Notes under the pieces: generated by a model
Databases searched by the model: none
Seen by the model: the letters and a program-made list of their open reading frames with translations, nothing else
Told to the model about the DNA's origin: nothing
Source of the DNA: an uncultured Pseudomonadota bacterium
GTDB taxonomy: Bacteria > Pseudomonadota > Gammaproteobacteria > Ga0077536
DNA: 50,496 bases
Reading direction: 5' to 3'
Assembly: GCA_913047675.1 (NCBI GenBank)
Contig: CAJWTO010000006.1
Location: 1 to 50,496 of the forward strand
Translations under genes and position numbers: made by a program
In this document: one piece after another, positions 24,361 through 50,258 of the stretch
Layout of the letters: every line of letters begins with the position of its first letter
Numbering within the stretch: the stretch's first letter is position 1

Positions 24361-24379
24361 TTTCTATCCTTTTTTACTC

Positions 24380-25673: not shown

Positions 25674-25685
25674 ACGTGAAGTATT

Positions 25686-27776: not shown

Positions 27777-27885
27777 TCCTTCCCCTTTTTTGATTGTAGT
27801 TACAATTACGACAGTATCTGATGGCGAGGAAACACTATCCTAAAACCATTAGTATTTGTCCAGTTGTCAAATTTTTTTTACTCTT

Positions 27886-28338
27886 CTAATCCATCCTGCT
27901 TGAGTAGTCCCACGAGGTCATCCATTCGGGGACTATTTTAATAGTGCTTTCTGACTGAGGGTGCGAGAGAAGCCATTTAGCTAGCGAGCTATCAGTACTG
28001 ATTAAGTATTTCTCTATCAACTTTTCTAAAACGGGTTCGCTCACAGCGTTTATCAAGGTTGCTGTACCTCTACCCCTTACGCCGGAGTAGGGTGGGTTCT
28101 CTCCTGCTATTTCGAAGCCAACTTTATTATTTCTTTTTAGCCTCGCGCATATTAGTGATTTAGAGCGAGCGCTTAGGTAAATAAATTTGTTCTTCTGGAG
28201 AAACCACATAGATGTAACTTGGGGAAAGCCATTTTGATCTATTGAGGCTAATCTACAGGGCAAAACTGTTGTATCCAGATAATCCCTAACTTGGTCTTCG
28301 GACCATGCGCTAGAGGTACTCAATTTATATCCCATCAT
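27886..28338 (-). CDS. Pyridoxamine 5'-phosphate oxidase-like (split-barrel flavin/F420-binding) protein
   Basis: RLASIDQNGFPQVTSMWF, GVRGRG, SWDYS. Start moved from 28392 to ATG 28338 (or GTG 28341) because an AGGAG SD lies at 28346-28350 and the longer call overlaps the upstream gene. Confidence 0.82.
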   Translation of the reverse strand: MMGYKLSTSSAWSEDQVRDYLDTTVLPCRLASIDQNGFPQVTSMWFLQKNKFIYLSARSKSLICARLKRNNKVGFEIAGENPPYSGVRGRGTATLINAVSEPVLEKLIEKYLISTDSSLAKWLLSHPQSESTIKIVPEWMTSWDYSSRMD

Positions 28339-28369
28339 CACTTCTCTCCTATGGAAATTGTAAGCGCTT

Positions 28370-29122: not shown

Positions 29123-29155
29123 CTCAGCTGGCCGAAAATTCCACGGAACCTATGG

Positions 29156-29197
29156 AAAAAGATCCGCCACCTTTCTTTAACTGTGGCGGATTTTTTT
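29156..29197. terminator. Intrinsic (probably bidirectional) terminator after thiolase
   Basis: 9-bp stem ATCCGCCAC/GTGGCGGAT (29162-29191) flanked by A5 and T-rich tracts, just past the thiolase stop. Confidence 0.75.
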
Positions 29198-29199
29198 GT

Positions 29200-30351: not shown

Positions 30352-30437
30352 TTAATCTCCTTGCTTAATTTACTAGGTAACGGTCTATATTATGCTAAAT
30401 TCATATGCTGATTAAAACAATTGCCGAATTTCAATAG

Positions 30438-32965: not shown

Positions 32966-33619
32966 ATGTCGTCGGTACCTCAGAAAGAATTAGTTACTGG
33001 AGTTGAACGCTATCCATTGGATGCAGAAGTTCCCAATGTCGTTGAGAAGTTGTTTTCTTTGCGTAATCAATGTACCGAATGTAACGTTTGTGAGGTGGCG
33101 TGTTCTTTGGTCCACTCGCCCGACGGTACTGTTAATCCGCAATACGCTCGATTAAAAATTAATCATGCGCCCGCAAAGCCTTCTAAAGTGAGTCCTGGTG
33201 GTCTCGGGTTCGTTGCGGATATCTGTCATCACTGTGGTAACCCCCCACCTTGCGCTGAAGTATGTCCTACCGAGGCATTTTATTATGATCCAAAGACAAA
33301 GGCCGCCGTAATAGAGCAGGATAATTGTATTCAATGCATGGAGTGCGTGCCGGGCTGTCCTTTTGATACCGTATTTGTAGCTCCGAGCGGTGAATTATTA
33401 AAATGTGATCTTTGTGGGGGCGACCCGGTTTGCGTGAAAGCGTGTGCGGCGAGACCAGAAATGCTGAATGAAGGAAAGCAATATGTTCGTTTGCCAGTTT
33501 TGTTTTATGCCGAGCAGGCAGACTTCAATAAAGAGCACAAACAAGTCCCAGAAATGGGCGATGAAGTAGGTATGATGCAAGCGATGCTAGAGGCCGGGAA
33601 AATTTCGAGTCCTGCCTAG
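32966..33619 (+). CDS. 4x[4Fe-4S] polyferredoxin subunit (AorA/DmsB-like)
   Basis: CTECNVCEVAC, CHHCGNPPPCAEVCP, CIQCMECVPGCP, KCDLCGGDPVCVKAC. Confidence 0.93.
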   Translation: MSSVPQKELVTGVERYPLDAEVPNVVEKLFSLRNQCTECNVCEVACSLVHSPDGTVNPQYARLKINHAPAKPSKVSPGGLGFVADICHHCGNPPPCAEVCPTEAFYYDPKTKAAVIEQDNCIQCMECVPGCPFDTVFVAPSGELLKCDLCGGDPVCVKACAARPEMLNEGKQYVRLPVLFYAEQADFNKEHKQVPEMGDEVGMMQAMLEAGKISSPA

Positions 33620-33648
33620 GTTTTTTCGAGGAGAAGGGAGCAAATATT

Positions 33649-36011: not shown

Positions 36012-37283
36012 ATGAGAATGAGAATGGGTGGATTTCTGTTGCCTAGTGCGGGGGCTACGCCACAAGAATTTGAACGCGGATTAGCAGGTCAAAATTCCAA
36101 TTATTATCAACAAAGTTTAGCAGATTGTGCTAGGTTGGTAACGCAAATGGAGGACTTAGGTTTTGACTTTGTTGCGTTCACAGAGCATCACTTTCATTTA
36201 GAAGGATTGGAGGTCTCTAACAACCCTGTCATGCTGGGTACTTGGGCTGCGATGCAGACAAAAAAAATCCGCATAAGTCAGATGGGGAATGTGTTGCCTG
36301 CGAGAAATCCTATTCTCCTCGCCGAAGATTTAGCAATGTTGGATCATTTTTCTCAGGGTCGAATGAGTGCTGGTTTTGCTCGAGGCTATCAGGCTAGACA
36401 CGTTATGACTGTCGGCCAAAAAATGAATGCGGTTTCTACTGCTGCGAACGACGAGGCCTATATGGAACACGATAGGGTGAATCGGGAGCTCTTTAACGAA
36501 CATTTTTCTATAATAAAAAAGGCTTGGCATAATTCGATGTTTAGGCACGAGGGCAAACATTGGAGTATCCCACCCAGCGGTATTAAATGGGATCATCCGG
36601 CGACTATACATATGGCACCTGGTATGGTTTCGGATGAAGGAAACCTTGAGCAAGTAGGTATAGCGCCGTTGACATTACAGGACCCTTCCAGTATTGAATT
36701 ATTTATTCCATTTACGATGAGCGCTGAGACAATTGAGTGGTCGGCGCGGGAGAGGGCTGTGCCGATTATTTTCTCTCCTATCGAGGAGCAGGCTAAGGGA
36801 GCTATAGATCTTTATCACTCAGCTGCGACAGATGGGGGACGCACCCTTGATTGGGGTCAGGGTGTCGGACACTTTAGGGAGATCGTCGTAGCTGACACGG
36901 ACGAGGAGGCATATCGTATTATGGAGGACGGATTGGGCTATATTTGGACCCGATGGCACGATTGGTTTGGCTTTAATGAGGCTCTTCGTTATGTGGGAGA
37001 GAAAGGTCCAGTTCCAAATACTCCAGAGGCTATGCGAGAGCGTGGATTTTCTATAGCGGGATCAGTAGATACTGTCGCACGAGGGTTACAGCAGATGATT
37101 GACAGACTTAATCCTGAATTAATTGTTCCCTGGATTGCAGCAGGCCCAGTAAAAGTTGATAAGTTGCTAAGATCAAATGAGCTCCTCGTGGAGAAAGTAT
37201 TACCGAAACTTGGTATAGAGTTAGATCAATTTGCGCCATCATTTAGGAAAGATTTCGATGGTAATGGATGGCAGGCTCGATGA
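36012..37283 (+). CDS. LLM-family (luciferase-like) monooxygenase
   Basis: GFDFVAFTEHHF, LAEDLAMLDHFSQGRMSAGFARGY; GGAGG SD. Confidence 0.92.
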   Translation: MRMRMGGFLLPSAGATPQEFERGLAGQNSNYYQQSLADCARLVTQMEDLGFDFVAFTEHHFHLEGLEVSNNPVMLGTWAAMQTKKIRISQMGNVLPARNPILLAEDLAMLDHFSQGRMSAGFARGYQARHVMTVGQKMNAVSTAANDEAYMEHDRVNRELFNEHFSIIKKAWHNSMFRHEGKHWSIPPSGIKWDHPATIHMAPGMVSDEGNLEQVGIAPLTLQDPSSIELFIPFTMSAETIEWSARERAVPIIFSPIEEQAKGAIDLYHSAATDGGRTLDWGQGVGHFREIVVADTDEEAYRIMEDGLGYIWTRWHDWFGFNEALRYVGEKGPVPNTPEAMRERGFSIAGSVDTVARGLQQMIDRLNPELIVPWIAAGPVKVDKLLRSNELLVEKVLPKLGIELDQFAPSFRKDFDGNGWQAR

Positions 37284-37295
37284 GAGGAGTGAGAC

Positions 37296-38747
37296 ATGGC
37301 AATTAGGAACGGAGAAACTTACATATCAGGTTTGTGTGACGGTCGAGAGGTTTGGTATGGAGGTGAAAGGGTTTCTGATGTTTCTAAATTTAGTCAATTT
37401 CAAGCTGCAGTACGTTCGATTGCTGAGCTTTACGATATGCAGCATTTGGAAGAACATAGGGCTCTGTTATCCTGCTATTCTGAAGAAGTTGAGGAGGAAG
37501 TGGGTCGTTCTTTTCAAATCCCGAGAAATCCTGAGGATCTTCGTTTAAAACGAGAGGCTTATTTTCTTTGGGCACGAGCAAACTGTGGGATGATTGGTCG
37601 AAGTCCGGATTTTTTAAATGTCATGCTGGCAGCGTTGGCTGCAAAAAAAAGTTTTTTTGCAGAGGGCGGAAAAGATCGCGCCAGTAACGTTTTAGATTAT
37701 TATCGTTTTGTCGCGAAGAATGATTTGTTTATGACCCATGCCCTCTTAGATCCGCAGCTTGATAAAGGGAAGCTGAGAAACGAACAGTCGGATCCTGATA
37801 TATGCTTGCGCGTAGTGGATGAAAACCAAGATGGTATTATTTTATCTGGCATAAAACGAATAGCGACAGCTGCACCGTATGCCGATGAACTGTTAGTTTG
37901 GCCTTTCCCACCTACTTTTCAGGAGGGCGAGGAGTCTTATGCAAATGTTTTTGCGATACCTATGAACTCCAAAGGATTAAAGACGCTGTGTAGGCCATCT
38001 TTTTCAAATAGCGGAACTACGAGAGATTTCCCTCTTTCATCTCGTTTTGACGAGATGGATGCGACGGTAGTTTTTGATGAAGTGCACGTTCCATGGGAGA
38101 GAGTTTTTGTTTATAAAAACATAGTACTTCTTAATCGTATGTACAGAGACAGTCGAATGAGAGAACTGACTGCGCACCAGACAAATACGAGGTTGGAGGC
38201 TAAGCTCGGCTTTGTATATTCGGTAATTCAGCGATTGGCAGAAGCGCAGGGAATAGAAAATAGGCCCGAGGTTATGGAAATGCTTGGTGAAGCGGCGGTC
38301 AAGATAGAGGTCATACGTTCAACCACTAGATCGGCGGAGTATCAGGCAACTTTGGACCATGAGAATGGAGTCTTGTATCCAGATTTAGCTTCTCTGCAGG
38401 CAGGTAGGGCTCTTGGGCCCATTTACTACCCTGAAATGATCGATATGATACGCAAGATGGGAGGTGGTGCATTGGTACAAGTGCCAGTGACCATGGCTGA
38501 ATTTGATTCACCAGTTGGACAAGATATCGAAAAAGCGCTGAGAGGGGCCGCGATAAGTGGTCAGGAAAAAACTCAACTTTTAAAGGTTGCGTGGGATCTG
38601 TGCGGAAGTGAATTTGGGTCTAGGCACGAGCTTTATGAGAAGAATTACGCAGGCGAACGGGGCGCTCTCTTGATGGGTGTTCAGCGGGAATATTATAGAA
38701 AAGACGATCATCTAGGCCATTTTAATGAGTTTTTGGAGGCTTTATGA
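37296..38747 (+). CDS. hpaB: Two-component phenolic hydroxylase, oxygenase component (4-hydroxyphenylacetate 3-monooxygenase HpaB family)
   Basis: GRSPDFLN, HALLDPQ.D, G.K..ATAA, PLSSRFDEMDA.VVFD.V.VPWERVF, FGSRHELYE. Symbol is family-level. Confidence 0.88.
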   Translation: MAIRNGETYISGLCDGREVWYGGERVSDVSKFSQFQAAVRSIAELYDMQHLEEHRALLSCYSEEVEEEVGRSFQIPRNPEDLRLKREAYFLWARANCGMIGRSPDFLNVMLAALAAKKSFFAEGGKDRASNVLDYYRFVAKNDLFMTHALLDPQLDKGKLRNEQSDPDICLRVVDENQDGIILSGIKRIATAAPYADELLVWPFPPTFQEGEESYANVFAIPMNSKGLKTLCRPSFSNSGTTRDFPLSSRFDEMDATVVFDEVHVPWERVFVYKNIVLLNRMYRDSRMRELTAHQTNTRLEAKLGFVYSVIQRLAEAQGIENRPEVMEMLGEAAVKIEVIRSTTRSAEYQATLDHENGVLYPDLASLQAGRALGPIYYPEMIDMIRKMGGGALVQVPVTMAEFDSPVGQDIEKALRGAAISGQEKTQLLKVAWDLCGSEFGSRHELYEKNYAGERGALLMGVQREYYRKDDHLGHFNEFLEAL

Positions 38748-39622
38748 GTAGACATAGTGAAGTACCCACCACTTTCTGGTCGGATTTAAATCACGCTTCA
38801 TTTGAGCAAGGTTATTTAGAAGCCGGATCTATTAGGACTAGGTACTTACATTCTGGAGAGAGAGAGCTTCCTCCCCTATTATTACTCCATGGTACCGGTG
38901 GTCACGCTGAATGTTATATGCGAAATTTATCGAGTCATGGGCGATATTTTGATACTTGGGCCATTGACTTTGTTGGACACGGATGGTCGGGTAAGCCTGA
39001 TGTTGACTATGAAATTGATTACTATGTCGAACATGTCGCTAGTGTTATGGATGCGCTCGGTATTAGTAAAGCTCACATATCGGGAGAATCTCTTGGTGGT
39101 TGGGTAGGGGCCCGGTTTGCGCTGAAATATCCCGAAAGGATAATGCGTCTAGTCCTGAATACGACTGGCGGCGCGACCATGAATCCGTCAGTGATGGAAA
39201 AAATCAAGGTATTGACTCGTGCCGCAGTTAATGACCCAGAGTGGGATACTGTAAGAGCGCGCTTAGAGTGGCTGATGGCCGATCCCGCTACCGTTACTGA
39301 TGAACTAGTGAGGTGTCGACGAGAAATTTATATGCAGGACGGCTTTAAGGAGGCTCTTGAGCATATATTGGTCCTACAAGATCCCGAGATACGGCTTAGA
39401 AATAATTTGTCCGATGACGAGTGGTCTAATATCTTGGCTGAAACATTAGTTATTTGGACTTCAGATGATCCTACCGCAGATGATTCGGTAGGACGGCGAA
39501 TAGCGAGTTTAATTCCAAATGCTAAGTATGAATTAATGCTGAATTGTGGACACTGGCCGCAGTATGAAGATCCCAAAGTATTTAATGAGATTCATCTTTC
39601 TTTTCTTCGAGGTTGCGGTTAG
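38744..39622 (+). CDS. mhpC: Meta-cleavage product hydrolase (MhpC/HppC-like alpha/beta hydrolase)
   Basis: LHGTGGH, GESLG, CGHWPQYE; ATGA-coupled to hpaB and directly before an MhpB-type dioxygenase. Symbol is family-level. Confidence 0.75.
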   Translation: MSRHSEVPTTFWSDLNHASFEQGYLEAGSIRTRYLHSGERELPPLLLLHGTGGHAECYMRNLSSHGRYFDTWAIDFVGHGWSGKPDVDYEIDYYVEHVASVMDALGISKAHISGESLGGWVGARFALKYPERIMRLVLNTTGGATMNPSVMEKIKVLTRAAVNDPEWDTVRARLEWLMADPATVTDELVRCRREIYMQDGFKEALEHILVLQDPEIRLRNNLSDDEWSNILAETLVIWTSDDPTADDSVGRRIASLIPNAKYELMLNCGHWPQYEDPKVFNEIHLSFLRGCG

Positions 39623-39628
39623 CTAGCG

Positions 39629-40573
39629 ATGTCGGTAAGGTTCGCTTTCGCCTCGCACACACCATTAAAAGACTATTGTGAGGTCGCGCCCGCCGTTTCG
39701 GAATCTGTAGAATCAGCACATATTGACTTGAGAAACTGGGTTGATGAATATCAGCCCGAGCTTGTAATTGCGATAGGTCCTGATCATTTTAATGGCTTCT
39801 TTTACGGACTGATGCCTTCTTTCTGCGTGGGTATGTCGACCGAGGCAGTCGGAGACTGGAATACGCCTCAGGGTGAACTTCCATCGAGCGAGGAGTTGGC
39901 TACTAAATTATTAGCTTATAGTCATAGGTCGGGCGTTGACCTAGCTTATTCTCACAATATGCGAGTAGATCACGGGATTAGTCAGTTTCTTCATGAACTT
40001 TTTGAGTGGCGGATGTTGCCTCCAATCATACCCATATTTGTAAATTGTGCTGCTGCTCCGAGGCCTCCTCTGGCGAGGGTACTTGAGTTGGGACGTATAA
40101 TCGGACAATTTGCTAGAGCTCAAAGTCTTAGAGTGTTAGTAACTGCTTCGGGTGGTTTATCTCATGATCCGCCGATTCCTTCGATAACGACTGCGAGTGG
40201 TAAGCTAAGAGAACGATTGATTAAAGGCGGTGACTTGAGCGCAGAAGCAAGACAAGCAAGACAAGAAATTGTCGTTCAGGAGGCTATGAAGCAGAGACAG
40301 GGAGAAAGTTTGCGACTTCCACTTAACCCGGAATGGGATCGGACTTTTATCAATAATCTGCAGCGTTTTGACTTTGACTCTCTCTTGTCACTGAGTGACG
40401 AAGATATCACCAGTGCCGCAGGATGCGGAGCACATGAAATTAGGGCATGGCTGACGGGAGCGTCCGCCGCGAAAGAATGTGGAATAACCAAGCTAGACTT
40501 ATTGCTTTATTTGCCTATTCCAGAGTGGGTCGCGGGCTACGGGATCATGCGCGGACAGATTATGAAGGATTAA
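39629..40573 (+). CDS. mhpB: Extradiol dioxygenase, 3-(2,3-dihydroxyphenyl)propionate 1,2-dioxygenase (MhpB/LigB class III) family
   Basis: SHTPL, PDHFNGFFY, VDHG, SGGLSHDPP, PLNPEWD, HEIRAW, IPEW. Confidence 0.88.
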   Translation: MSVRFAFASHTPLKDYCEVAPAVSESVESAHIDLRNWVDEYQPELVIAIGPDHFNGFFYGLMPSFCVGMSTEAVGDWNTPQGELPSSEELATKLLAYSHRSGVDLAYSHNMRVDHGISQFLHELFEWRMLPPIIPIFVNCAAAPRPPLARVLELGRIIGQFARAQSLRVLVTASGGLSHDPPIPSITTASGKLRERLIKGGDLSAEARQARQEIVVQEAMKQRQGESLRLPLNPEWDRTFINNLQRFDFDSLLSLSDEDITSAAGCGAHEIRAWLTGASAAKECGITKLDLLLYLPIPEWVAGYGIMRGQIMKD

Positions 40574-41108: not shown

Positions 41109-42356
41109 ATGTTAAAAATGAGACAGGTGCATATAGCCGGCGTTGGGATGACTAATTTTGGTAAATTCTTAGATAGAAGTTTAAAGGATTTGACCGGAGA
41201 TGCTTTAAAGGATGTTTTGTCTGACGCGGGCTGCGATGCCACAGATATCGAGGCTGCTTTTTTTGGAAATTGTGTCCAAGGCCACATGGAAGGTCAAGAT
41301 ATGGTGCGAGGCGAAATAGCGCTTCGACCTTTTGGTGTTTCTGGTGTTCCAATCGTCAACGTCGAAAATGCTTGCGCTACATCGAGTACTGCTTTTCATA
41401 TGGCCGTAAATTATGTGAAATCTGGCGCAGCTGACATTGTGTTAGCAATAGGTGTTGAAAAGATGTTCTCTGAAGATAAGGCGAGAATGTTTAGCGCCTT
41501 TGATGGCGCGTGGGATGTGCACGAAGTGGAACAGAGCGTCGAACGGTTCGATGGGATGGCCGAAGGAGTAGAGATACCTGAAGGCACCACCTCGCCGAGA
41601 CCGTACAGTGTGTTTATGGACATATACGCTGGATTTTGTCGGATGCACATGAAAGAGTTTGGCACCACTCAAGAGCAGCTAGCGATCATCGCGTCGAAAA
41701 ATCATTTACATTCTGTACATAACACTCGGTCGCAATATAACAAGGCCTTTACTGTAGAAGAAGTTTTGGCGGCGGCGCCAATAACTTACCCGTTGACACT
41801 GCCTATGTGCTCCCCTGTGAGTGATGGAGCTGCTGCTGCAATAGTTTGTAGTCACGAAGGTCTGAAAAAATTAAAAGGTCGTACCGATCGGAATGTGAAA
41901 GTTCTTAGTAGCGTACTGCGAGCGGGTAGCGATAGAGAGTTGCGTGATTTTGAGCAGCATGCAAGTAAGTTAGCTGCTATGACCGCTTACGATCAAGCAG
42001 GTGTTGGCCCGGAGGATGTTGATGTCGCTGAGGTGCATGATGCGACAGCGATGGGCGAGGTGATGGAAGTAGAGGCTTTAGGCTTGTGCGAGCTAGGCGG
42101 GGGAGGACCGATGGCACAAGCGGGTGATAGCACCCTCGGGGGACGAGTTCCTGTTAATCCGTCTGGTGGTCTTGAGTCGAAAGGTCATCCGATAGGAGCC
42201 ACCGGATTAGGACAGATTTTTGAGCTGGTTTGTCAGCTTCGGGGTGAGTCTGACGCACGACAGGTCGAAGGTGCGCGAGTAGGTATCGCGCAAAATGGCG
42301 GTGGTATTGTCGGGATCGAAGAGGCAGTGACCTGTATTACGTTATTAGGCACATAG
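41109..42356 (+). CDS. SCP2-type (non-canonical) thiolase family protein
   Basis: VENACATSS, SPVSDGAAA, EVHDA (instead of NEAF), SGGLESKGHPIGATG; no C-terminal CxGGG. Confidence 0.9.
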   Translation: MLKMRQVHIAGVGMTNFGKFLDRSLKDLTGDALKDVLSDAGCDATDIEAAFFGNCVQGHMEGQDMVRGEIALRPFGVSGVPIVNVENACATSSTAFHMAVNYVKSGAADIVLAIGVEKMFSEDKARMFSAFDGAWDVHEVEQSVERFDGMAEGVEIPEGTTSPRPYSVFMDIYAGFCRMHMKEFGTTQEQLAIIASKNHLHSVHNTRSQYNKAFTVEEVLAAAPITYPLTLPMCSPVSDGAAAAIVCSHEGLKKLKGRTDRNVKVLSSVLRAGSDRELRDFEQHASKLAAMTAYDQAGVGPEDVDVAEVHDATAMGEVMEVEALGLCELGGGGPMAQAGDSTLGGRVPVNPSGGLESKGHPIGATGLGQIFELVCQLRGESDARQVEGARVGIAQNGGGIVGIEEAVTCITLLGT

Positions 42357-42374
42357 GCTTCTGTTTTTAACTGA

Positions 42375-44129
42375 TTGACGGAATTTGACGATATGGCTGA
42401 GCGACGGAACGCGAAGGTTTTAGAGCTGACAGGAGACTACCTGCCTGATCGGGCGCTTATCGGTGGGAAAGCTTGGTCTATATGCCGAATGAAAAGTCTA
42501 GGTCTGCCGGTGCCGCCTGCTTTTGTAGTTACTACAAACGTGTGTCAGGATTATTTGAATGCTCGAGAGCTTTCTGATGCCTTGAAAGATGAGGTTCTAG
42601 TTGCTGTAAGAGGATTAGAAGGTACCACTGGAAGATATTTGGGCGGCGAGGAACGGCCGCTCTTACTTTCTGTGCGTTCAGGGGCACCAATATCTATGCC
42701 AGGAATGATGGATACAGTGCTCAATCTAGGGATGAGCTTAGAGGTTCAGAAAGCGCTAGCAGTTGAGTCTGGTAGCGAAAAATTTGCGAAAGACACTCAT
42801 CTCAGATTTTTGACACTTTACTCCAATATAGTTTTGAAGCAGTCGATCACTGATGATGTCGAACCGGAAATCATTCTTCAGTCGTTAAATAGTGATGGAA
42901 AATTTGAGAGTCCTACGGAGCAATTATTCAAAGCAATAGAAGCCGTATTTTCATCGTGGAATTCTCGGAGGGCAAAAAGATATCGTAAACACAATGGCAT
43001 TTCTGATGAGCTAGGAACAGCTGTCGTTGTGCAGGCGATGGTTTTTGGAAACCTTGATCGCGCCTCGGGAACAGGAGTGTTATTCAGTCGCAATCCTTTA
43101 ACGGGTAGTAAGGAACCTTTTGGAGAATATTTAGCCAGCGCTCAGGGGGAAGATGTAGTCTCAGGCACCCATACACCTGACCCTCTCAGTTGTTTAGAGA
43201 AAGATATGCCAGAAATCTACGATGAACTATTAAGATCTTCTGAGGTTTTAGAGAATGAAAACGGTGATGTCCAGGACATCGAATTTACAGTGCAGAATGG
43301 CGAACTCTTTTTACTCCAGTCTCGCTCTGCGAAGAGATCGCCCGATGCTGCGGTCTCTTTTGCAGTGGATATGGTGGAAGAGGGTCGGATTTCTTCTGAC
43401 GTAGCGCTATCGCGAGTAACGTGTGAGCAGGTACGCACATTGCTTCGACCTAAGCTAGAAGAGGGCTGTACAATCGACCGAGTAACTCTCGCACAGGGCG
43501 AATCGGCATGTCATGGGGTAAGTCACGGTGTTGTTGCTCTAACTTCTGAGCAAGCTGAACTACTATCCTCTCAAGGAATAGATGTTGTGCTCGCTAGGGA
43601 AACGACCAGCCCAGATGACCTCCATGGAATGATTGCTAGTACTGCGGTTTTGACCGAGACTGGTGGTTTAACTTCACATGCGGCTGTTGTGGGTAGGGCG
43701 TTAGGAGTTCCGTGTATAGTAGGGTGCGGTTCTGGAAGTCTGCTGAGGCTGGAAGGGAAGAAAGTCACGGTTGACGCCACTTCGGGTAAGGTTTTCGAAG
43801 GCTATCTACCTATGGTACGGCCAAAAGAAAGAGATGATCCTCGTTTAGTTCGTATCAAAGGATGGGCAAGTGACCAATGTCCAATTAAAGTGGTGGAGCG
43901 GTCGAGCGCCGTAACACAAGAGGTCTTCGATTTAGATGATTTAGATGATTGCGACAGTCCGGAAAAGATTCCATTGTATTTGAAAGGACAAAAAGTTGTA
44001 TCTGGTAGTGTATTAGACTCCGGAGTTGGTGTTCTAGCGGCGATACAGTGTGGTATCGAGACTATTGTCACGGATAATCCGCTAGCGGTAACTTTGGCGG
44101 CGGTCGAAGCGAAAAACTGTAATGACTAA
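42375..44129 (+). CDS. ppdK: PPDK-like ATP-grasp plus phospho-His swivel protein lacking the pyruvate-binding barrel (HpeI/AcvB-like kinase subunit)
   Basis: GGKA, PVPPAF, SVRSGAPISMPGMMDTVLN, QAMVFGN, AQGEDVVSG, QDIEFT, LQSR, GGLTSHAAVVGR. Only 584 aa versus about 880 for full PPDK. Start may be ATG 42393. Symbol is family-level. Confidence 0.88.
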   Translation: MTEFDDMAERRNAKVLELTGDYLPDRALIGGKAWSICRMKSLGLPVPPAFVVTTNVCQDYLNARELSDALKDEVLVAVRGLEGTTGRYLGGEERPLLLSVRSGAPISMPGMMDTVLNLGMSLEVQKALAVESGSEKFAKDTHLRFLTLYSNIVLKQSITDDVEPEIILQSLNSDGKFESPTEQLFKAIEAVFSSWNSRRAKRYRKHNGISDELGTAVVVQAMVFGNLDRASGTGVLFSRNPLTGSKEPFGEYLASAQGEDVVSGTHTPDPLSCLEKDMPEIYDELLRSSEVLENENGDVQDIEFTVQNGELFLLQSRSAKRSPDAAVSFAVDMVEEGRISSDVALSRVTCEQVRTLLRPKLEEGCTIDRVTLAQGESACHGVSHGVVALTSEQAELLSSQGIDVVLARETTSPDDLHGMIASTAVLTETGGLTSHAAVVGRALGVPCIVGCGSGSLLRLEGKKVTVDATSGKVFEGYLPMVRPKERDDPRLVRIKGWASDQCPIKVVERSSAVTQEVFDLDDLDDCDSPEKIPLYLKGQKVVSGSVLDSGVGVLAAIQCGIETIVTDNPLAVTLAAVEAKNCND

Positions 44130-44170
44130 AACTATTTTCACAAAGAAAAAAATATCTGAGGACAAATTTA

Positions 44171-44662
44171 ATGGCTAAGCCTACTTCGGACGATATAAAA
44201 ACGTTGATTGAACAGTTTGAGCAATCTGACTGGAAGGAAGTGCATGTAAAAACTGATGGTTTCGAATTGTATTTGTCTGAAAACCCAAAAAGTTCGGGTC
44301 CTCCTTCGGCTGTTACACCCCAGTTGACCACAGCAACTTCTCAAACTGTTGAGAACGCTGATACGAGTCCGGTCGTTGCGGAACCGGCACTTGAAGCGGG
44401 TAAAGCCATTCTACCAGAAGGCATGACTGCCGTAACAGCTCCCAATCTTGGCACATTTTATAGTGCTCCAAAACCTGGTGCGCCGCCTTATGTTGAAGTC
44501 GGTCAAAATGTTTCTGCGGAGACAGAGGTCTGTTTGATTGAAGTAATGAAATTATTTACGCCAGTAAAAGCGGGCGTATCAGGCGTCATCAGGGAAATCT
44601 GTGTATCTGATGGACAGATGGTCGAGTATGAGCAGCTCCTTGTTGTCATCGAACCAAGCTGA
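44171..44662 (+). CDS. accB: Biotin carboxyl carrier protein (AccB family; HpeC/AcvC-like)
   Basis: APNLGTFY, IEVMKL biotinyl-Lys motif, Pro/Ala-rich linker. Symbol is family-level. Confidence 0.92.
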   Translation: MAKPTSDDIKTLIEQFEQSDWKEVHVKTDGFELYLSENPKSSGPPSAVTPQLTTATSQTVENADTSPVVAEPALEAGKAILPEGMTAVTAPNLGTFYSAPKPGAPPYVEVGQNVSAETEVCLIEVMKLFTPVKAGVSGVIREICVSDGQMVEYEQLLVVIEPS

Positions 44663-44671
44663 TTTTTACTT

Positions 44672-46042
44672 ATGACAATTAAGCGAGTTTTTGTTGCAAA
44701 TCGTGGAGAAATCGCGGTACGAATCATACGAGCTGCGCACGCGCTGGGAATAGAGGTTGTGCAAGGTGTTTCTCTCGCTGATAGAGATAGTATGGCACCG
44801 AAGATGGCCGATCGTACTGTAGTTATTGGGCCGGCTCAGTCTAAGGATAGCTACCTAGATGTTCAGACTGTGGTGCATGCGGCGAAGTCGACAGGTTGTG
44901 ACGCGCTGCACCCTGGCTATGGGTTTCTTTCAGAGAGAGCTGAACTGGCGCGTGTTTGCGTGGAAGAAGGCATTATTTTTATCGGTCCTCAAGCTCAAGT
45001 TATTGAGGATTTAGGAGATAAACTTCGAGCCAGAGAAATAGCGGAAAGATCTGGGATTGCTTCAGTACCTGGAAGTGGTCATGTTGAGTCTCCTGCTGCC
45101 GCTTTAGTGGCAGCTAATAAAATTGGATTTCCTGTAGTTATGAAAGCCTCGGCTGGGGGAGGTGGACGGGGAATGTTTGTTGCCCGAAACAGTAACGCCA
45201 TTAAAGAGTCTTTTGAACGAGCAAGTGGCGAGGCCTTGGAAGCTTTTGGCGATGGGACCCTTTATCTAGAGAGATATATTGAAAATGCGCGACATGTCGA
45301 GGTACAGATAGCGGGAGATGGTCAAGGGAATGCTGTACATTTTGGCGAGAGGGATTGCTCAGTCCAGCGGAGATATCAAAAAGTAGTAGAAGAGGCTCCT
45401 TGTGTTTTAATGTCCGATCCTCTCAGAAAAAAACTTCACAAAGCAGCCGTTAAGTTAGTTGCCTCACTTAACTACTCTAATGTTGGCACAGTAGAATTTC
45501 TTTTTGATGTTGAGCGAGATGAGTTCTATTTCATTGAAGTAAACACGCGTATTCAAGTCGAACATCCGGTTACAGAGCAGGTTACGGGATATGATTTGGT
45601 ACAGATGCAGTTTCGTCTCGCGGCGGGCGAGGAAAATGCTCTACCGTCACAAAAAGCAATAGGTATTTCAAGACATGCCATCGAGTGTAGGTTGAATGCC
45701 GAGGATGCGTATAATAATTTTGCTCCAAGTCCAGGTCGCATCAAGGAATGGAGCCCCGCGCAAGGTGCTGGTATCAGAGTTGATAGTCATTGTTATAGCG
45801 ATTATTTGGTGCCACCATTTTACGACTCTATGATTGGTAAAATAGTAGTGACTGGACCAGATCGGTTGTCGACTGTTCGTCGTCTCCAAGCAGCACTTGA
45901 GGATTTTCGGATCGAAGGGTTAGTATGTAATTTACAATTACTTCGCGAAATCGTTGCGCATCCAGATTTTGAGGATAATAGTTTTCACACGCGGTGGTTG
46001 GAACAAGATATGCTTCCAGTGTTTGAGTTGGCAAAAAAATAA
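44672..46042 (+). CDS. accC: Biotin carboxylase (AccC family; HpeB/AcvD-like)
   Basis: ANRGEIAVR, HPGYGFLSE, GGGGRGM, ERDCSVQRR, EVNTRIQVEHPVTE, YDSMIGK. Symbol is family-level. Confidence 0.95.
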   Translation: MTIKRVFVANRGEIAVRIIRAAHALGIEVVQGVSLADRDSMAPKMADRTVVIGPAQSKDSYLDVQTVVHAAKSTGCDALHPGYGFLSERAELARVCVEEGIIFIGPQAQVIEDLGDKLRAREIAERSGIASVPGSGHVESPAAALVAANKIGFPVVMKASAGGGGRGMFVARNSNAIKESFERASGEALEAFGDGTLYLERYIENARHVEVQIAGDGQGNAVHFGERDCSVQRRYQKVVEEAPCVLMSDPLRKKLHKAAVKLVASLNYSNVGTVEFLFDVERDEFYFIEVNTRIQVEHPVTEQVTGYDLVQMQFRLAAGEENALPSQKAIGISRHAIECRLNAEDAYNNFAPSPGRIKEWSPAQGAGIRVDSHCYSDYLVPPFYDSMIGKIVVTGPDRLSTVRRLQAALEDFRIEGLVCNLQLLREIVAHPDFEDNSFHTRWLEQDMLPVFELAKK

Positions 46043-46057
46043 AGGATGTAGTGAAGA

Positions 46058-47512
46058 ATGGCGCACATAGAATTTCTTGATGAAACAATGCGTGATGGTC
46101 AGCAAAGTTTATGGGGAATGCGTATGCAAGCGGGCATGGCGCTTCCAGTGTCTCCAATCGTTGACCGTACCGGGTACCGAGTGATCGATCTCACTGGCTC
46201 GTCAATGTTTGAATGTTTAATTAAGTATTGTTATGAGAATCCGTGGGAAGGTTTAGACCTGCTTGTTAAGTCTATGCCGAATACTCCTATTAGGGGTGGT
46301 ATGCGGTCGAATGCTTCGGTTACTTTTGGCGTGACTCCCGATTCTTTGATGGACGCTTGGATGCGTCAGTTGAATGTCCATGGTGTGCGTAGCTTCTGGA
46401 TCTACGACGTACTCTTTAATATTGATAAAACATTGCGGTTGGCAAAAGTTGCTAAGGAGTTTGGTAGCGAAGTAGCGGGCGCCATTATGTTTACTTTGAG
46501 CCCAGTTCATACGGATGAGTATTATGCTGATAAAGCAGATAAATTGTCTGAGTCTGACGACATTGATACTATTTTGCTATATGACACGGCAGGGGTGCTA
46601 GAAAAAGAGAGATTGGTCACTTTGTTGCCAGCAATTAAATCTAAATCCCACGGAAAGCCGATCGAATTTCACTCGAATAATTTACTTGGGCAATCTGCCA
46701 AGGCTTATTTGGACGCTATAGATTTGGGTGTAAGTATACTGCACACCGCTGTGCGACCTATGGCAAATGGACCTTCGGTACCGTCTGTTGAAATAATGGC
46801 TAGGAACGTTGAGCTGTTAGGACACACGCATAATTTGGATAGCACTTTATTTCCTCCTGTTGCAGAGCATTTCGAAAAGGTTGGAAAAGCAGCGGGATTT
46901 TTAGTCAATCAATCTGCGGAATATGATGTACTTTCTATCCGTCATCAGGTACCCGGCGGAATGGTTGGAACTTTGAAAGCGCAACTAGTTCAAAATGGGA
47001 TGAGCGATAGGTTGGATGAGGTTCTCCAAGAAACTGCTGCTGTTAGAAAAGAGCTGGGCTACCCGGGGATGGCGACCCCATTTAGCCAGTTAGTGGGCAC
47101 TCAAGCGGTTCTCAATATTGTTACAGGTAAAAGGTACGCGTCTATTCCTGATGAAGTAATTCAGTATGCGGCAGGATTTTATGGTGATACAGCGGGTCCT
47201 ATCGATCAAAATATTATGGACGTTATTATGTCGTCACCACGCGCGAAAACAGTTGTGGCGAATCCTCCCGCACAGCCAAGTATTGAAGAATTGCGGAAAG
47301 AGTATGGCACTGACGACGATGACGAGCTGATTTTAAGGGCACTAGTTCCAGGAGAAGGTTTAGAAAAAATGAGGAGTAGTGGGCCTGTAAAAACTACCTA
47401 TTCGTACCTCTCGTCTCCTGAGTTACAGGAAGTATCAAAACTTATGAAACTCTCGCAGTCACCAGTCACGCAGATTAGTACCGAAGATCTTCATATATCG
47501 TTGAAGCGCTAA
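46058..47512 (+). CDS. Pyruvate-carboxylase/OadA-type carboxyltransferase subunit (HpeA/AcvE/XccA-like)
   Basis: DETMRDGQQSL, ENPWE, SPVHT, HQVPGGM, VRKELGYP.MATPFSQLVG.QA; no fused biotin domain. Confidence 0.88.
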   Translation: MAHIEFLDETMRDGQQSLWGMRMQAGMALPVSPIVDRTGYRVIDLTGSSMFECLIKYCYENPWEGLDLLVKSMPNTPIRGGMRSNASVTFGVTPDSLMDAWMRQLNVHGVRSFWIYDVLFNIDKTLRLAKVAKEFGSEVAGAIMFTLSPVHTDEYYADKADKLSESDDIDTILLYDTAGVLEKERLVTLLPAIKSKSHGKPIEFHSNNLLGQSAKAYLDAIDLGVSILHTAVRPMANGPSVPSVEIMARNVELLGHTHNLDSTLFPPVAEHFEKVGKAAGFLVNQSAEYDVLSIRHQVPGGMVGTLKAQLVQNGMSDRLDEVLQETAAVRKELGYPGMATPFSQLVGTQAVLNIVTGKRYASIPDEVIQYAAGFYGDTAGPIDQNIMDVIMSSPRAKTVVANPPAQPSIEELRKEYGTDDDDELILRALVPGEGLEKMRSSGPVKTTYSYLSSPELQEVSKLMKLSQSPVTQISTEDLHISLKR

Positions 47513-47517
47513 CGCTT

Positions 47518-48714
47518 GTGTCCAGCCGTCGCGCAGTCATAATCGATGCAGTTAGAACACCATTTTGCCGTGGTCGAGAAGGGGGAGCCTTGTCGGGGAT
47601 CCATCCAGTAGATTTGTACGCCCAAACTTTGTCGGAATTAATCAGCCGGACTCAAGTAGATCCAGCAATTATTGAAGACGTTATTACTGGCTGTGTTATA
47701 CAGGTTGCCGAGCAATCAGGAAATATCGGTAGGCAAGCCGCCCTTGCGGCGGGTTTCCCCGAAAGTGTGCCCGCTATCACGCTAGACCGTAAATGTGGTT
47801 CTGCTCAGCAGGCGATGGATTTTGCAGCGCAAGGGGTTATATCTGGGGCTTATGATACGGTTATCGCAGGTGGCGTTGAAATGATGAGTACGGTGCCGAT
47901 GAGGATTAACCGCATGGGTAAGGATAATGAAGGCGAATTATTTCGGAGCCGTTATCCAGATGGAATGATCCGCCAGGGGGTTTCTGCTGAACTTATTGCG
48001 AGCCGTTGGAATATTGCTCGTGAGGAGTTAGATCAGTTTTCGATGAGGTCTCACATCAGAGCCGCAGATGATGTTAGCGGAAGAGTTAAAGATATTGTAT
48101 CTATTAACAAGGGGTTGGCGGAGGATGGTGTTGCATTGGTTTGCGATGATGAAGGTGTTCGTCCTAATACCAACCTAGAAACGCTGTCAAATTTAGATAC
48201 TGTTTTTAAAACCGACGAAATGAGTGCTAGGTACCCGGAGATAAACTGGAGTCTGACTGCAGCGAGTTCGAGTCCAGTTAGCGATGGCGCAAGCGCCTTG
48301 CTGATTATGGAAGAACAGCTGGCGATGAGGCTGAACCTAGCACCGCGGGCTGCAATAACACATTTCTCTGTAGTGGGGGATGATCCGATAATGATGTTGA
48401 CTGCGATAATGCCCGCCACTAAGAAGTTATTGAGACGGTCTGCATTACGCTTATCTGATATTGACGCATACGAAGTTAACGAGGCATTTGCTTCAATTCC
48501 GTTGGCCTGGCTCAAGGAGTTAGATGGGGATCCTGAAAAACTCAATCAGTATGGAGGTGCAATTGCATTAGGGCATCCTGTAGGCGCCTCCGGGGGACGT
48601 TTGATCGCTAATATAATGAGAGTTCTTGAAGATACGAACGGCAGATATGGTTTAGTAACAATGTGTGAGAGTGGGGGAATGGCAAACGCGACCCTTATCG
48701 AGAACTTGACCTAG
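47518..48714 (+). CDS. Acetyl-CoA C-acyltransferase (thiolase)
   Basis: DRKCGSAQQ, NEAF, GHPVGASG, MCESGG; GTG start. Confidence 0.93.
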   Translation: MSSRRAVIIDAVRTPFCRGREGGALSGIHPVDLYAQTLSELISRTQVDPAIIEDVITGCVIQVAEQSGNIGRQAALAAGFPESVPAITLDRKCGSAQQAMDFAAQGVISGAYDTVIAGGVEMMSTVPMRINRMGKDNEGELFRSRYPDGMIRQGVSAELIASRWNIAREELDQFSMRSHIRAADDVSGRVKDIVSINKGLAEDGVALVCDDEGVRPNTNLETLSNLDTVFKTDEMSARYPEINWSLTAASSSPVSDGASALLIMEEQLAMRLNLAPRAAITHFSVVGDDPIMMLTAIMPATKKLLRRSALRLSDIDAYEVNEAFASIPLAWLKELDGDPEKLNQYGGAIALGHPVGASGGRLIANIMRVLEDTNGRYGLVTMCESGGMANATLIENLT

Positions 48715-48765
48715 GCTTGAGCCTTTTTGTTCATTGATAGCTTTTTTAAATAAAGGAATTAGATT

Positions 48766-49551
48766 ATGCCTGATAGAATGACAGATAAGGTTACTATCAT
48801 TACCGGAGCTGGAACGGGGATTGGTCGAGCCTGTATGGAACTCTTTGCGGCGGAAGGTGCGAAGGTAATTGGTTGTGGTCGCCGCGAAAACATGTTGCAG
48901 GAAAGTTTAGATTTAGTTTCTGAAAATCACGGTGAGGGGCACATTGTTGCTGCAGATTTATCTAATCTAGAAGATGCGCAGAACGTAATTAGTAAAACAA
49001 TGTCTATTTACGGAAGGATTGATTGTTTAGTGCACGCTGCGAGTGTCGGGTGGAGTTGGAGCCACACCAGCGAAGATTCGATGAATGATATAGCAAATAC
49101 TCCGCCAGAAAAATGGCACGAAGTTATCGGGATAAATTTAAATGCTTGTTATTACATGTGTCACGGGGTTTTACAGCATATGCTAGAAGCGGGTCAAGGA
49201 TCGATTGTTAACGTAGCAAGTATTTCAGGAATGGTCGGTATGCAATCGGCTCACACTTATTGTTCTGCTAAAGGGGGCGTAATAAACTTGACGCGCGCTA
49301 TGGCGAACTCGTATGGGAAGCTCGGGGTCAGAGCCAACTGCGTATGTCCTGGCTACACTGATACACCTATGATTGCTGACGTGATGAATATATTTGACGA
49401 TGAGACGTTAGCAGATAATCTCACACCAATGAGCCGTGCGGGGACTCCTTTAGAAATGGCCTATGGCTGCCTGTACTTAGCATCTGACGAAGCAAGCTAT
49501 TGCAATGGCGTGATTCTGCCTATAGATGGCGGAACTGTCGCGCGGCAATAG
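48766..49551 (+). CDS. Classical SDR oxidoreductase
   Basis: TGAGTGIG, NVASISG, YCSAK (YxxxK), CPGYTDT, IDGG. Confidence 0.93.
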   Translation: MPDRMTDKVTIITGAGTGIGRACMELFAAEGAKVIGCGRRENMLQESLDLVSENHGEGHIVAADLSNLEDAQNVISKTMSIYGRIDCLVHAASVGWSWSHTSEDSMNDIANTPPEKWHEVIGINLNACYYMCHGVLQHMLEAGQGSIVNVASISGMVGMQSAHTYCSAKGGVINLTRAMANSYGKLGVRANCVCPGYTDTPMIADVMNIFDDETLADNLTPMSRAGTPLEMAYGCLYLASDEASYCNGVILPIDGGTVARQ

Positions 49552-49610: not shown

Positions 49611-50258
49611 TCAGTCGATTGGCTCAAAAACCTCGCCGTTGTAAAAGAGCAGATTTCCTTCGCTGATATCATGCCATAGTCCGTGGATGGATAATTCTGC
49701 AGTCCTTACGGCATCCTGTACAAACGGAAAGGTCATCAAATTTTCCATCGACATAATGATCCCTTCGTGCTCCAGCGCGCGCAGTTGGTCTTCTTTACTT
49801 TTTGTATGATCAACGCGTTCATAGGCCGGACGCAGTAGATCTACCCATCGCCCCACAAAGCTCGTTTCTTTCTCGAGTTCAGGAGCCTTGCCAGAACACA
49901 TTTGATCACATCCTTTTACACCTCCACAATTAGAGTGTCCTAATATTATGATATGAGAAACATTTAAAGCAGTGACCGCATATTCAATTGCAGCTGATGT
50001 GCCAAGGTTATCACCAGATAGACTGAAAGGTGGGACTAGGTTAGCTATATTTCGATGAATGAAAAACTCACCTATATCTGACTCGAATATCGATGTGGCT
50101 TGTACTCGACTATCACAACAGGAAATGACCATCGCTAAAGGAGCTTGGCCCTGTTCGACGAGGTATCTGTATGTGGGTTGTTTCCCAGGAAAAGTATTTT
50201 TTTTCCAATCTAAATAGCGGAGTTTTAGGTCAGGGGGAAGCGGCGAGGCAATATTCAT
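49611..50258 (-). CDS. Beta-class carbonic anhydrase
   Basis: CCDSR, RNIANLVPP, AAIEYAV, GHSNCGG Zn ligands; GAGG SD. Confidence 0.95.
   Translation of the reverse strand: MNIASPLPPDLKLRYLDWKKNTFPGKQPTYRYLVEQGQAPLAMVISCCDSRVQATSIFESDIGEFFIHRNIANLVPPFSLSGDNLGTSAAIEYAVTALNVSHIIILGHSNCGGVKGCDQMCSGKAPELEKETSFVGRWVDLLRPAYERVDHTKSKEDQLRALEHEGIIMSMENLMTFPFVQDAVRTAELSIHGLWHDISEGNLLFYNGEVFEPID

Follow-up and report, generated by a model that had tools for sequence, protein, structure and literature searches.

A truncated pyruvate, phosphate dikinase and a remodelled carboxyltransferase in a probable biotin-dependent ketone-carboxylation system of a gammaproteobacterial family

The DNA considered here, hereafter the window, is a stretch of 50,496 nucleotides from an uncultured gammaproteobacterium of the Ga0077536 lineage (assembly GCA_913047675.1, contig CAJWTO010000006.1, positions 1 to 50,496 of the forward strand). 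It carries a seven-gene operon (41109-49551, plus strand) in which a truncated pyruvate, phosphate dikinase (PPDK), which we call KIN, is encoded next to a three-part biotin carboxylase, two thiolases and a short-chain dehydrogenase/reductase (SDR). The operon is one third of a conserved system whose other parts, including proteins that we call HisDom, U520 and U210, are encoded on two further contigs of the same genome, C17 and C1. We consider it quite probable that this system performs a kinase-assisted, biotin-dependent carboxylation of a ketone, followed by activation with coenzyme A (CoA) and thiolysis. A narrower proposal, which we hold to be evenly balanced, makes a hydroxyaryl methyl ketone the substrate, with the ring hydroxyl as its site of phosphorylation; the system would then be a third kinase/phosphatase solution to the Acv/Hpe/Hac pathway, split over three loci.

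The seven reading frames follow one another with intergenic gaps of 18, 41, 9, 15, 5 and 51 nt and are preceded by a gap of 535 nt. The first encodes an SCP2-type (lipid-transfer/BbsB-like) thiolase of 415 aa (41109..42356; PF22691 and PF00108) and the second KIN, of 584 aa (42375..44129; PF01326 and PF00391). Next come the biotin carboxyl carrier protein (BCCP; 163 aa; 44171..44662; PF00364), the biotin carboxylase (BC; 456 aa; 44672..46042; PF00289, PF02786 and PF02785) and a carboxyltransferase (CT) of the pyruvate carboxylase/OadA superfamily (484 aa; 46058..47512; PF02436, PYC_OADA-type). The last two genes specify a thiolase of the acetyl-CoA C-acyltransferase family, here thiolase II (398 aa; 47518..48714; PF00108 and PF02803), and a classical SDR (261 aa; 48766..49551; PF13561 and PF00106). 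The open reading frame listing, Pfam and NCBIfam agree on this layout, and an initial annotation made from the letters of the window had given the same coordinates, the same domains and gaps of 51 nt or less. Pattern scans for promoters and terminators returned hits at chance level. Contigs from RNA libraries of four marine and salt-marsh studies match fragments of all seven genes at 95% or more, and some of them span the junctions between the SCP2 thiolase gene and KIN, KIN and BCCP, BCCP and BC, and BC and CT. DNA can occur in such libraries, and contig depth neither ranks the genes nor proves transcription, while the uncovered parts carry no meaning; the matches are a hint that the operon may be expressed.

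KIN is, to judge by its sequence, a truncated true PPDK that keeps its own His domain. It consists of an ATP-grasp domain (PPDK_N), a swivel phospho-His domain (the phosphoenolpyruvate (PEP)-utilizers mobile domain) and a family-specific C-terminal stretch of about 110 aa, and it aligns with full PPDKs over the first two of these. It passes the NCBIfam model NF004531 ('PRK05878') with 669.3 bits against a cut-off of 456, residues 8-580 being matched, although the name of that family carries no functional information. Of the 865 positions of the full PPDK model TIGR01828 only 196-534 are covered (479 bits, the cut-off being 843), and the best PDB sequence matches, all full PPDKs, extend only over residues ~168-485. 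Pfam and NCBIfam find no PEP/pyruvate barrel in KIN, which places it outside the three-domain definition of PPDK (EC 2.7.9.1); without the barrel, it cannot be a PPDK by itself. The TSH motif with His435, together with the motif surrounding it, is invariant in 21 homologues, and we propose that KIN may act as an ATP-driven phosphoryl donor. The initial annotation had regarded it as a subunit of the HpeI/AcvB type that had lost its partner. This view has to be abandoned: KIN is a truncated PPDK with a His domain of its own, and the AcvB-like ATP-grasp protein shares only 23% identity with it, over the ATP-grasp domain.

Metagenomes hold hundreds of close relatives of KIN with the same length and domain content; the 120 matches listed are 52-93% identical to it, and many of those named come from metagenome-assembled genomes (MAGs) of Gammaproteobacteria. 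A contig scan with an alignment of the kinase relied on motifs common to all PPDKs, and about 75 of the 80 loci listed are ordinary full-length PPDKs; the truncated type occurs among the listed matches only in L009-L012 and L018. Two of these, from Nocardia uniformis (L012) and Mycolicibacterium porcinum (L018), encode truncated PPDKs 47-49% identical to KIN with no biotin carboxylase genes adjoining. The truncated PPDK family thus has at least one other genomic context.

The three carboxylase subunits could be taken at first sight for housekeeping enzymes. The BCCP has a VMKL biotinylation motif at residue 125 and passes TIGR00531 narrowly (118.3 bits against a cut-off of 115.2), the BC passes NF006367 ('accC') with 598.8 bits against 597, and these two scores, with the NF004531 match of KIN, are what a reading of the operon as PPDK plus subunits of acetyl-CoA or pyruvate carboxylase has in its favor. 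We find this reading barely credible. KIN is devoid of the PEP/pyruvate barrel, and the CT, which scores 320 bits with the PycB model NF006761 (cut-off 402), stays below the cut-offs of every PycB and OadA model of NCBIfam and lacks a metal-site Lys and one His. A full-length pyruvate carboxylase of 1148 aa is encoded on contig C87, and other BC and BCCP copies are also present in the genome. The operon contains no AccA/AccD-type carboxyltransferase (PF01039/PF03255), its CT being of the PYC_OADA type; the PF01039 gene of the window (20781-22346, minus strand) lies 19 kb away on the opposite strand. The initial annotation was therefore right to set the operon apart from ppdK/accBC/oadA and to warn that automated annotation would conceal it: the genes are called ppdK, accBC and "carboxyltransferase".

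A further argument comes from conservation. We compared 40 related genomes, 24 of the window's own family and 16 from 16 other families of the same class. KIN is found at E <= 1e-100 in 17 of the 24 and in none of the 16. The order KIN-BCCP-BC-CT-thiolase II recurs in 16 of the 17 loci, the contig of the seventeenth ending just past KIN, and is seen again in all three alphaproteobacterial MAG loci; the SDR is present in 15 of the 16 informative loci of relatives and the SCP2 thiolase in 10 of 17. The arrangement of the seven genes is far beyond chance and constitutes a conserved unit. Whether thiolase and SDR stay with the core had been named in the initial annotation as a test of its interpretation, and they do (16 of 17 and 15 of 16 loci, respectively); genes that always travel in such company are hardly those of central metabolism. 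Within this unit the CT is the most conserved protein (67-99% identity across gamma- and alphaproteobacterial loci) and KIN the least (48-92%). Two Rhodococcus plasmids, pRB98 of R. oxybenzonivorans S2-17 and pA of R. pyridinivorans P23, carry all parts of the system in one colinear 12-gene operon. The order there is PEP-utilizing enzyme, 525-aa hypothetical protein, AMP-binding protein, 202-aa hypothetical protein, 'pyruvate, phosphate dikinase', BCCP, BC, carboxyltransferase, OB-fold protein, thiolase, tyrosine-protein phosphatase and SRPBCC protein. Plasmid pSA1 of Novosphingobium resinovorum SA1 encodes a CT 67% identical to that of the window, plus U520, HisDom and U210.

The partners of KIN emerged from clustering the flanking reading frames of these loci. 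The recurrent additions are HisDom, U520, an AMP-forming ligase and, directly 5' of KIN, U210. In 9 of 21 loci KIN has HisDom and U520 as neighbors; U210 is found in 11 of 21, directly upstream of KIN in ten and within the same locus in L126; the ligase is often also present in the fuller clusters. A candidate called 'U235' in this clustering was discarded as a spurious opposite-strand frame over the true U210 gene. In the window's genome, contig C17 carries, in this order, genes for a Y_phosphatase3 protein, HisDom (244 aa), U520 (517 aa), U210 (210 aa) and a second SDR, and contig C1 encodes a FadD-like ligase that shares 64% identity with the ligase of the clusters and whose gene converges with one for a further Y_phosphatase3 protein. 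The suggestion made in the initial annotation that the kinase might have a different partner was thus well placed: HisDom, U520 and U210 stand on C17 instead of a homologue of hpeH or acvA.

HisDom, of about 250 aa, is recognisable only as a PEP-utilizers swivel domain. It keeps the catalytic His, in an RSH motif that aligns with the TSH motif of KIN, and has no ATP-binding domain. U520 and U210 are at least two undescribed protein families in the system. A search of 1.84 billion representatives yields 407 relatives of U520 at E <= 1e-3, but the protein has no sequence match in Pfam, NCBIfam or the PDB, and the protein atlas gave nothing usable; its model is confident (pLDDT 91.3, pTM 0.92) and has no Foldseek match to a solved structure at E <= 0.001. 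A few Foldseek matches to START/Bet v 1-like folds, with probabilities of 0.04-0.06, were not relied upon. U210 has 357 relatives at E <= 1e-5, all named ones being 'hypothetical protein'. Its model (pLDDT 93.4) has an N-terminal winged helix like that of MarR/IclR (best E-value 0.036), and the helical C-terminal part has no structural match. Two natural fusions tie these proteins to one another: P0121 (726 aa) joins U520 to U210 (43% identity over U210), and P0172 joins HisDom to a domain like the N-terminal one of U520. When KIN was co-folded with U210, the median score was 0.57 (runs 0.57, 0.60 and 0.15; best of three controls 0.00), with partner pLDDT of at least 83 and at least 74% of contacts shared; in calibration, passes at or below 0.60 prove wrong in the majority of cases unless the contact had been probable from the outset, and the result lends weak support to a contact between the two proteins.

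U520 follows the KIN operon closely. It is found in 20 of the 24 family genomes, among them all 17 that bear KIN, and in none of the 16 others, while the four family genomes without it are also without KIN. The three genomes with U520 and no KIN match carry a CT orthologue (80-85% identity); in one of them the CT match is itself incomplete and in another only a KIN fragment was assembled, so that the absence of KIN in these three is best read as an assembly gap. The relatives are not independent samples, however, which makes the co-occurrence suggestive rather than statistical. In 400 further Pseudomonadota genomes, sampled evenly across the phylum, U520 was not found, a further mark against a housekeeping role and a sign that the system is patchy: dense in one family, and otherwise found on plasmids and in scattered alphaproteobacteria. 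The system is thus a conserved one, present in 20 of 24 family genomes, in some alphaproteobacteria and on Rhodococcus plasmids, and the window does not hold the locally rebuilt architecture that the initial annotation had seen in it.

One could ask whether the KIN operon and the C17 module have anything to do with each other. In this alternative they are functionally independent, KIN acting alone or with some other partner and HisDom-U520-U210 forming a separate kinase with another donor. Larger relatives possess two or three HisDom-U520 modules, and it is their stand-alone five-gene 'module B' to which the C17 module is orthologous (72-76% identity), not their KIN-adjacent module (59-60%); it follows that service of the C17 module to KIN in the window's genome is our own deduction. 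The weak support from the co-fold with U210, the only direct test of a contact with KIN, points the same way. Yet the co-occurrence in the 24 family genomes is perfect once contig breaks are allowed for, HisDom by itself is without an ATP-binding domain, and the presence of one KIN against two or three HisDom-U520 modules in several genomes fits a single shared donor. A third architecture, seen in a relative (L141, G014:C8:21000-40000), also speaks against independence: it encodes a CT, BCCP-BC, HisDom, a fused U520/U210 (741-aa frame) and a second CT, so that HisDom and the fusion are flanked by BC and CT genes, and the 19 kb retrieved contain no KIN; its two CTs are 43-47% identical to that of the window. 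We regard functional independence as unlikely. One ATP-charged donor serving several carrier/transferase modules, in the manner of a phosphotransferase system (PTS), would explain both the module pattern and the existence of two His domains. Module B is complete in 6 of 7 loci of relatives, and caprolactamase-like HydA/HydB genes are near it in 5 of 7. In the window's genome, too, a Hydantoinase_B/Hydantoinase_A pair (L124, G000:C17:8000-24000; 10493-14364, minus strand) converges on the C17 module; among NCBIfam models it scores highest with those of the caprolactamase subunits, far below the cut-offs.

These features inspire a comparison with the catabolism of acetovanillone and 4-hydroxyacetophenone. 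In Rhodococcus rhodochrous GD02 the pathway comprises HpeHI (a PpsAB/CreHI-like kinase), HpeCBA, the HAD phosphatase HpeD and HpeE/HpeF (Dexter et al. 2022, PMC9618137). In Sphingobium sp. SYK-6, acvABCDEF encode kinase A, kinase B, BCCP, BC, a CT with 26% identity to PycB and a HAD protein (Higuchi et al., 10.1101/2022.04.28.489975). The names HpeA/ApkA and HpeB/ApkB are assigned differently in these sources, Table 1 of the former giving hpeB as CT and hpeA as BC, the latter apkA as CT and apkB as BC. Hall et al. (2025, PMC12624787) added a monomeric UPF0261 (Tm-1-like) kinase, MarK, which goes with AcvCDEF in Novosphingobium aromaticivorans; the clusters in their count are all of the MarK or the AcvAB/HpeHI type. 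The p-ethylphenol route of Aromatoleum aromaticum EbN1 employs Hped1 (an SDR), HacABC (= XccABC), AcsA1 and the thiolase TioL1 (PMC10715001).

The gene logic of our system, with an SDR, a kinase, a three-part biotin carboxylase with a PycB-like CT, and thiolysis, parallels both Acv/Hpe and the Aromatoleum Hped-Hac(Xcc)-AcsA-TioL series, as the initial annotation had proposed. As in Acv/Hpe, an ATP-dependent kinase is encoded beside the three carboxylase subunits, the gene order kinase-BCCP-BC-CT is that of acv, and both have a phosphatase of their own, a CoA ligase and a C-C cleavage that yields acetyl-CoA. The parts themselves differ. The kinase is here a truncated PPDK with HisDom, U520 and U210, instead of the PpsA/PpsB-like AcvAB or HpeHI; the phosphatase is a Y_phosphatase3 protein with a CX5R loop, instead of a HAD; the ligase is FadD-like rather than AcsA-like; cleavage is assigned to thiolases, rather than to HpeF or VceAB; and the genes are split over three loci. 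MarK shows that the kinase module of this pathway can be exchanged while BCCP-BC-CT-phosphatase stays; it is a single-chain kinase of an unrelated family, whose clusters have retained the HAD phosphatase and a CT of the Acv type in which Lys and HxH are intact. The Aromatoleum pathway uses the same enzyme types (secondary-alcohol SDR, biotin carboxylase, CoA ligase, thiolase) with a kinase of the canonical type, xcc genes clustering with hpeHI homologues according to Dexter et al. (PMC9618137); here the comparison is by description and not by sequence.

Could the system nevertheless be an ordinary Hpe/Acv member, with hpeH/acvA, hpeD/acvF and hpeE elsewhere in the genome? The shared order of kinase, BCCP, BC and CT (that of acvABCDE) favors such a view, as do the identities to an AcvAB-type cluster on a Rhizobium plasmid (BC 49%, BCCP ~35%, CT 37%), which runs PEP-utilizing enzyme, PEP/pyruvate-binding protein, BCCP, BC, CT, HAD, acetoacetate-CoA ligase; the BC is equally 49% identical to that of a MarK-type cluster. 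However, when the genome, which is 88% complete, was searched by tblastn, AcvA-like, AcvB-like and MarK-like queries matched only a PEP synthase split over contigs C36 and C95 and the His domain of KIN itself, and two AcvF-like HAD proteins from Acv- and MarK-type clusters had no match at E <= 1e-6. U520 and U210, moreover, bear no similarity to the AcvA-like protein, and the CT falls outside the Acv/MarK clade. A canonical pathway with displaced genes, the outcome that the initial annotation had named as fatal to its proposal, accordingly strikes us as very improbable, the search having found no orthologue. The same annotation had remarked on the absence of an HpeD/AcvF-type HAD phosphatase and of a CoA ligase from the window; the first holds for the genome as far as AcvF-like HAD matches go, yet analogues of both the phosphatase and the ligase exist on C17 and C1. 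Full-text searches of PMC and bioRxiv found no description of a truncated-PPDK kinase, of a U520-like protein or of a tyrosine-phosphatase-type partner, though the type may appear in supplementary figures of hpe-like clusters.

The carboxyltransferase, too, departs from the known enzymes. Its comparators were defined by cluster architecture in a plasmid search and are stand-ins for AcvE, HpeB and XccA of the characterised strains; they include the AcvAB-type cluster of the Rhizobium plasmid, MarK-type clusters on plasmids of the bisphenol degraders Sphingomonas bisphenolicum (pBAR1) and Pseudomonas putida YC-AE1, and kinase-less CT-BCCP-BC clusters. The window CT is 36-37% identical to the Acv/MarK-type CTs among them. 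In a quick maximum-likelihood tree (root for drawing only; row 'own_C87_PYCtype' disregarded), the KIN-associated CTs form a clade of their own, with an SH-aLRT support of 100 for the 20 proteobacterial rows and of 86 with Rhodococcus added, and the Acv/MarK-type CTs a separate one (SH-aLRT 100). The Acv/Hpe-like CT of the initial annotation finds no support in this quick tree with its stand-ins, nor in the residues of the metal site. The RD..Q motif is present in all CTs compared. The Lys of the KDMAG motif is replaced by Tyr in all 20 proteobacterial KIN-type CTs and by Glu in both Rhodococcus ones, whereas the eight others, which comprise Acv-type, MarK-type and kinase-less CTs, OadA and the pyruvate carboxylase of the genome itself, retain it. 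In the same 20 proteins the second His of HxH is changed to Asn, while OadA, the own pyruvate carboxylase and six others keep both residues. The Arg of LLRGSN, in contrast, is retained in the KIN-type CTs and is a Thr in all three Acv/MarK-type CTs. We take these positions to be the carbamylated Lys, a metal-binding His and the carboxylate-binding Arg of pyruvate carboxylase, 5S transcarboxylase and OadA structures; literature searches returned no paper confirming these roles. On the strength of the alignment, the CT has a remodelled metal site, and its Tyr/Asn signature can serve as a search key.

This altered site is among the reasons for considering a different view of the chemistry. Ketones that are not phenols, for instance acetone, butanone and longer or isoprenoid methyl ketones, might be carboxylated through an enol phosphate made by the KIN-based kinase; the remodelled CT would join this intermediate to carboxybiotin with release of phosphate, and the phosphatases would merely salvage or proofread. 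The system would then do with biotin what the acetone and acetophenone carboxylases achieve without it. True PPDK, from which KIN derives, natively catalyses the enol phosphorylation of a methyl ketone acid; the CT keeps the LLRGSN Arg, and Tyr/Asn (Glu in Rhodococcus) are compatible with a different metal or an anionic group. Several clusters include thiolase II, acyl-CoA dehydrogenase, enoyl-CoA hydratase and a GntR regulator, the KIN family is common in marine metagenomes, and related kinase-less CT-BCCP-BC clusters adjoin genes for 3-oxoacid CoA-transferase and thiolase, or for acetoacetate decarboxylase. On the other hand, the Rhodococcus operon and the C17 module each include a dedicated CX5R phosphatase, which would be needless if phosphate left during carboxylation; an SCP2 thiolase with an OB-fold partner and an SRPBCC protein, as in Rhodococcus, suggest bulky, hydrophobic substrates; all characterised relatives act on phosphorylated phenols; and the roles given to the CT residues are presumed ones. 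On balance we see in the enol-phosphate route a possibility of the less likely sort. Its boldest version is somewhat more doubtful still: a PTS-like relay assembled from PPDK parts, in which KIN would charge free-standing phospho-His carriers, each paired with a new-fold U520 that sets the substrate, and the enol phosphate of a non-phenolic ketone would be carboxylated by the CT lacking Lys and His. The known acetone and acetophenone carboxylases (Acx, Apc, Acr), for their part, also carboxylate ketones at the expense of ATP via phosphorylated intermediates, with CoA activation and thiolysis to follow; they are, however, biotin-independent and of the hydantoinase type, and none of the seven window proteins has a Hydantoinase_A or Hydantoinase_B domain.

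The kinase-less clusters just mentioned, on plasmids of Cnuibacter (L131) and Burkholderia sp. THE68 (L130), have the usual Lys/HxH site. One adjoins BioY, 3-oxoacid CoA-transferase and thiolase genes; the neighbors of the other are genes for acetoacetate decarboxylase, an acetate symporter, carbonic anhydrase and the synthesis of biotin. Both seem to be candidates for the biotin-dependent carboxylation of a small ketone or keto acid.

Returning to the hydroxyaryl ketone, we envision a catabolic pathway for a methyl (or methylene) ketone that is encoded in three loci, with carboxylation and thiolysis as the share of the window. The SDR would oxidise a secondary alcohol to the ketone, and a multi-part kinase would then phosphorylate it: ATP would charge the swivel His of KIN, and HisDom, U520 (presumably the substrate-binding transferase) and U210 would act as partners from C17. 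The most likely target of phosphorylation is the phenolic hydroxyl of a hydroxyaryl ketone, for example 4-hydroxyacetophenone or acetovanillone. BCCP, BC and CT would next carboxylate the acetyl group with bicarbonate, possibly provided by the adjoining carbonic anhydrase. A Cys-type (CX5R), aryl-phosphatase-like enzyme of C17 or C1 would remove the phosphate, the FadD-like ligase of C1 would make the beta-ketoacyl-CoA, and the SCP2-type thiolase, thiolase II or both would release acetyl-CoA and an aroyl-CoA. The genes, their synteny and co-occurrence, the fusions, the intact catalytic motifs, the separate CT clade and its altered metal site are matters of observation, and it is from them that we infer each enzymatic step, the order of steps, the phosphorelay and the substrate.

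Aryl phosphates are the substrates of tyrosine phosphatases of the Cys type, and both Y_phosphatase3 proteins (PF13350) have an intact CX5R loop. It is because of this built-in phosphatase and of the parallel with characterised relatives that we favor a hydroxyaryl substrate, as well as because of the SCP2/OB-fold thiolase and SRPBCC protein in Rhodococcus and of the aromatic hydroxylase and meta-cleavage genes found 5' of the operon in the window and in L111. Several facts weigh on the other side. The upstream aromatic genes are not conserved with the core, two genomes of the same genus having an aldehyde:ferredoxin oxidoreductase gene instead. The acyl-CoA dehydrogenase, enoyl-CoA hydratase and GntR regulator of some clusters fit aliphatic as well as aromatic chains, and the SDR matches in NCBIfam and the PDB give no substrate diagnosis. 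A CT that keeps the Arg replaced by Thr in its Acv/MarK-type counterparts, and that has lost the Lys and one His, may differ from AcvE/HpeB in its chemistry. To these must be added the orthology of the C17 module with module B rather than with the KIN-adjacent module, and the 88% completeness of the genome.

The SCP2-type thiolase scores 320 bits with NF006102 and 221 bits with NF053628 (BbsB), both below cut-off, and shares 36% identity with the thiolase that the 12-gene operon of Rhodococcus encodes together with an OB-fold partner; no DUF35/OB-fold partner is encoded in the window. It is likely to be the enzyme that cleaves the beta-ketoacyl-CoA of the pathway. Thiolase II passes TIGR01930 with 397 bits against a cut-off of 240. 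The SDR has its best NCBIfam matches among butanediol and (R)-specific alcohol dehydrogenases, all below cut-off, and its PDB matches (top match 143 bits) include 4ure, a 'cyclohexanol dehydrogenase', at 135 bits; it is likely to be a secondary-alcohol dehydrogenase feeding the ketone into the pathway. A beta-class carbonic anhydrase gene (49611..50258, minus strand; PF00484, E = 3.6e-46) is convergent with the operon and occupies the same position in three of four loci of the same genus (L107, L108 and L110), not being seen within the contig of L109; its product may possibly supply the bicarbonate.

On the 5' side, the plus strand of the window encodes a 4Fe-4S protein and an aldehyde:ferredoxin oxidoreductase (32966-35610), then a four-gene block (36012-40573) for a luciferase-like monooxygenase, an HpaB-like hydroxylase, a meta-cleavage-type hydrolase and an MhpB-like extradiol dioxygenase. 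The dioxygenase passes NF009910, with 304.6 bits where 291 are required. Three of the four block genes are also present upstream of the core in L111. In L108 and L110, of the same genus, the genes for the 4Fe-4S protein and the aldehyde:ferredoxin oxidoreductase lie directly 5' of the SCP2 thiolase gene, the block being an insertion in the window. Farther upstream, a long catabolic stretch on the minus strand (16823-31727) includes two major facilitator superfamily transporters, an amidase, a trypsin-like/PDZ protease, the PF01039 carboxyltransferase, two luciferase-like monooxygenases, an alpha/beta hydrolase, a pyrroloquinoline quinone alcohol dehydrogenase with a cytochrome c domain, an SDR and a thiolase.

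For the route by which bacteria phosphorylate and then carboxylate lignin-derived acetovanillone and 4-hydroxyacetophenone, only two kinase solutions have been described, AcvAB/HpeHI and MarK. The findings presented here point to a third, a multi-component kinase based on a truncated PPDK, which would work with a different phosphatase and with a carboxyltransferase whose metal site has been rebuilt. This has a bearing on the marine turnover of aromatic or volatile ketones and on the design of strains for lignin upgrading. Should the substrate prove to be a simple ketone, the system would fill the stated gap of a biotin-dependent acetone carboxylase; and if the PTS-like enol-phosphate reading were true, acetone-like or aliphatic methyl ketones would have in it their first biotin-dependent carboxylase, one that is common in a marine gammaproteobacterial family.

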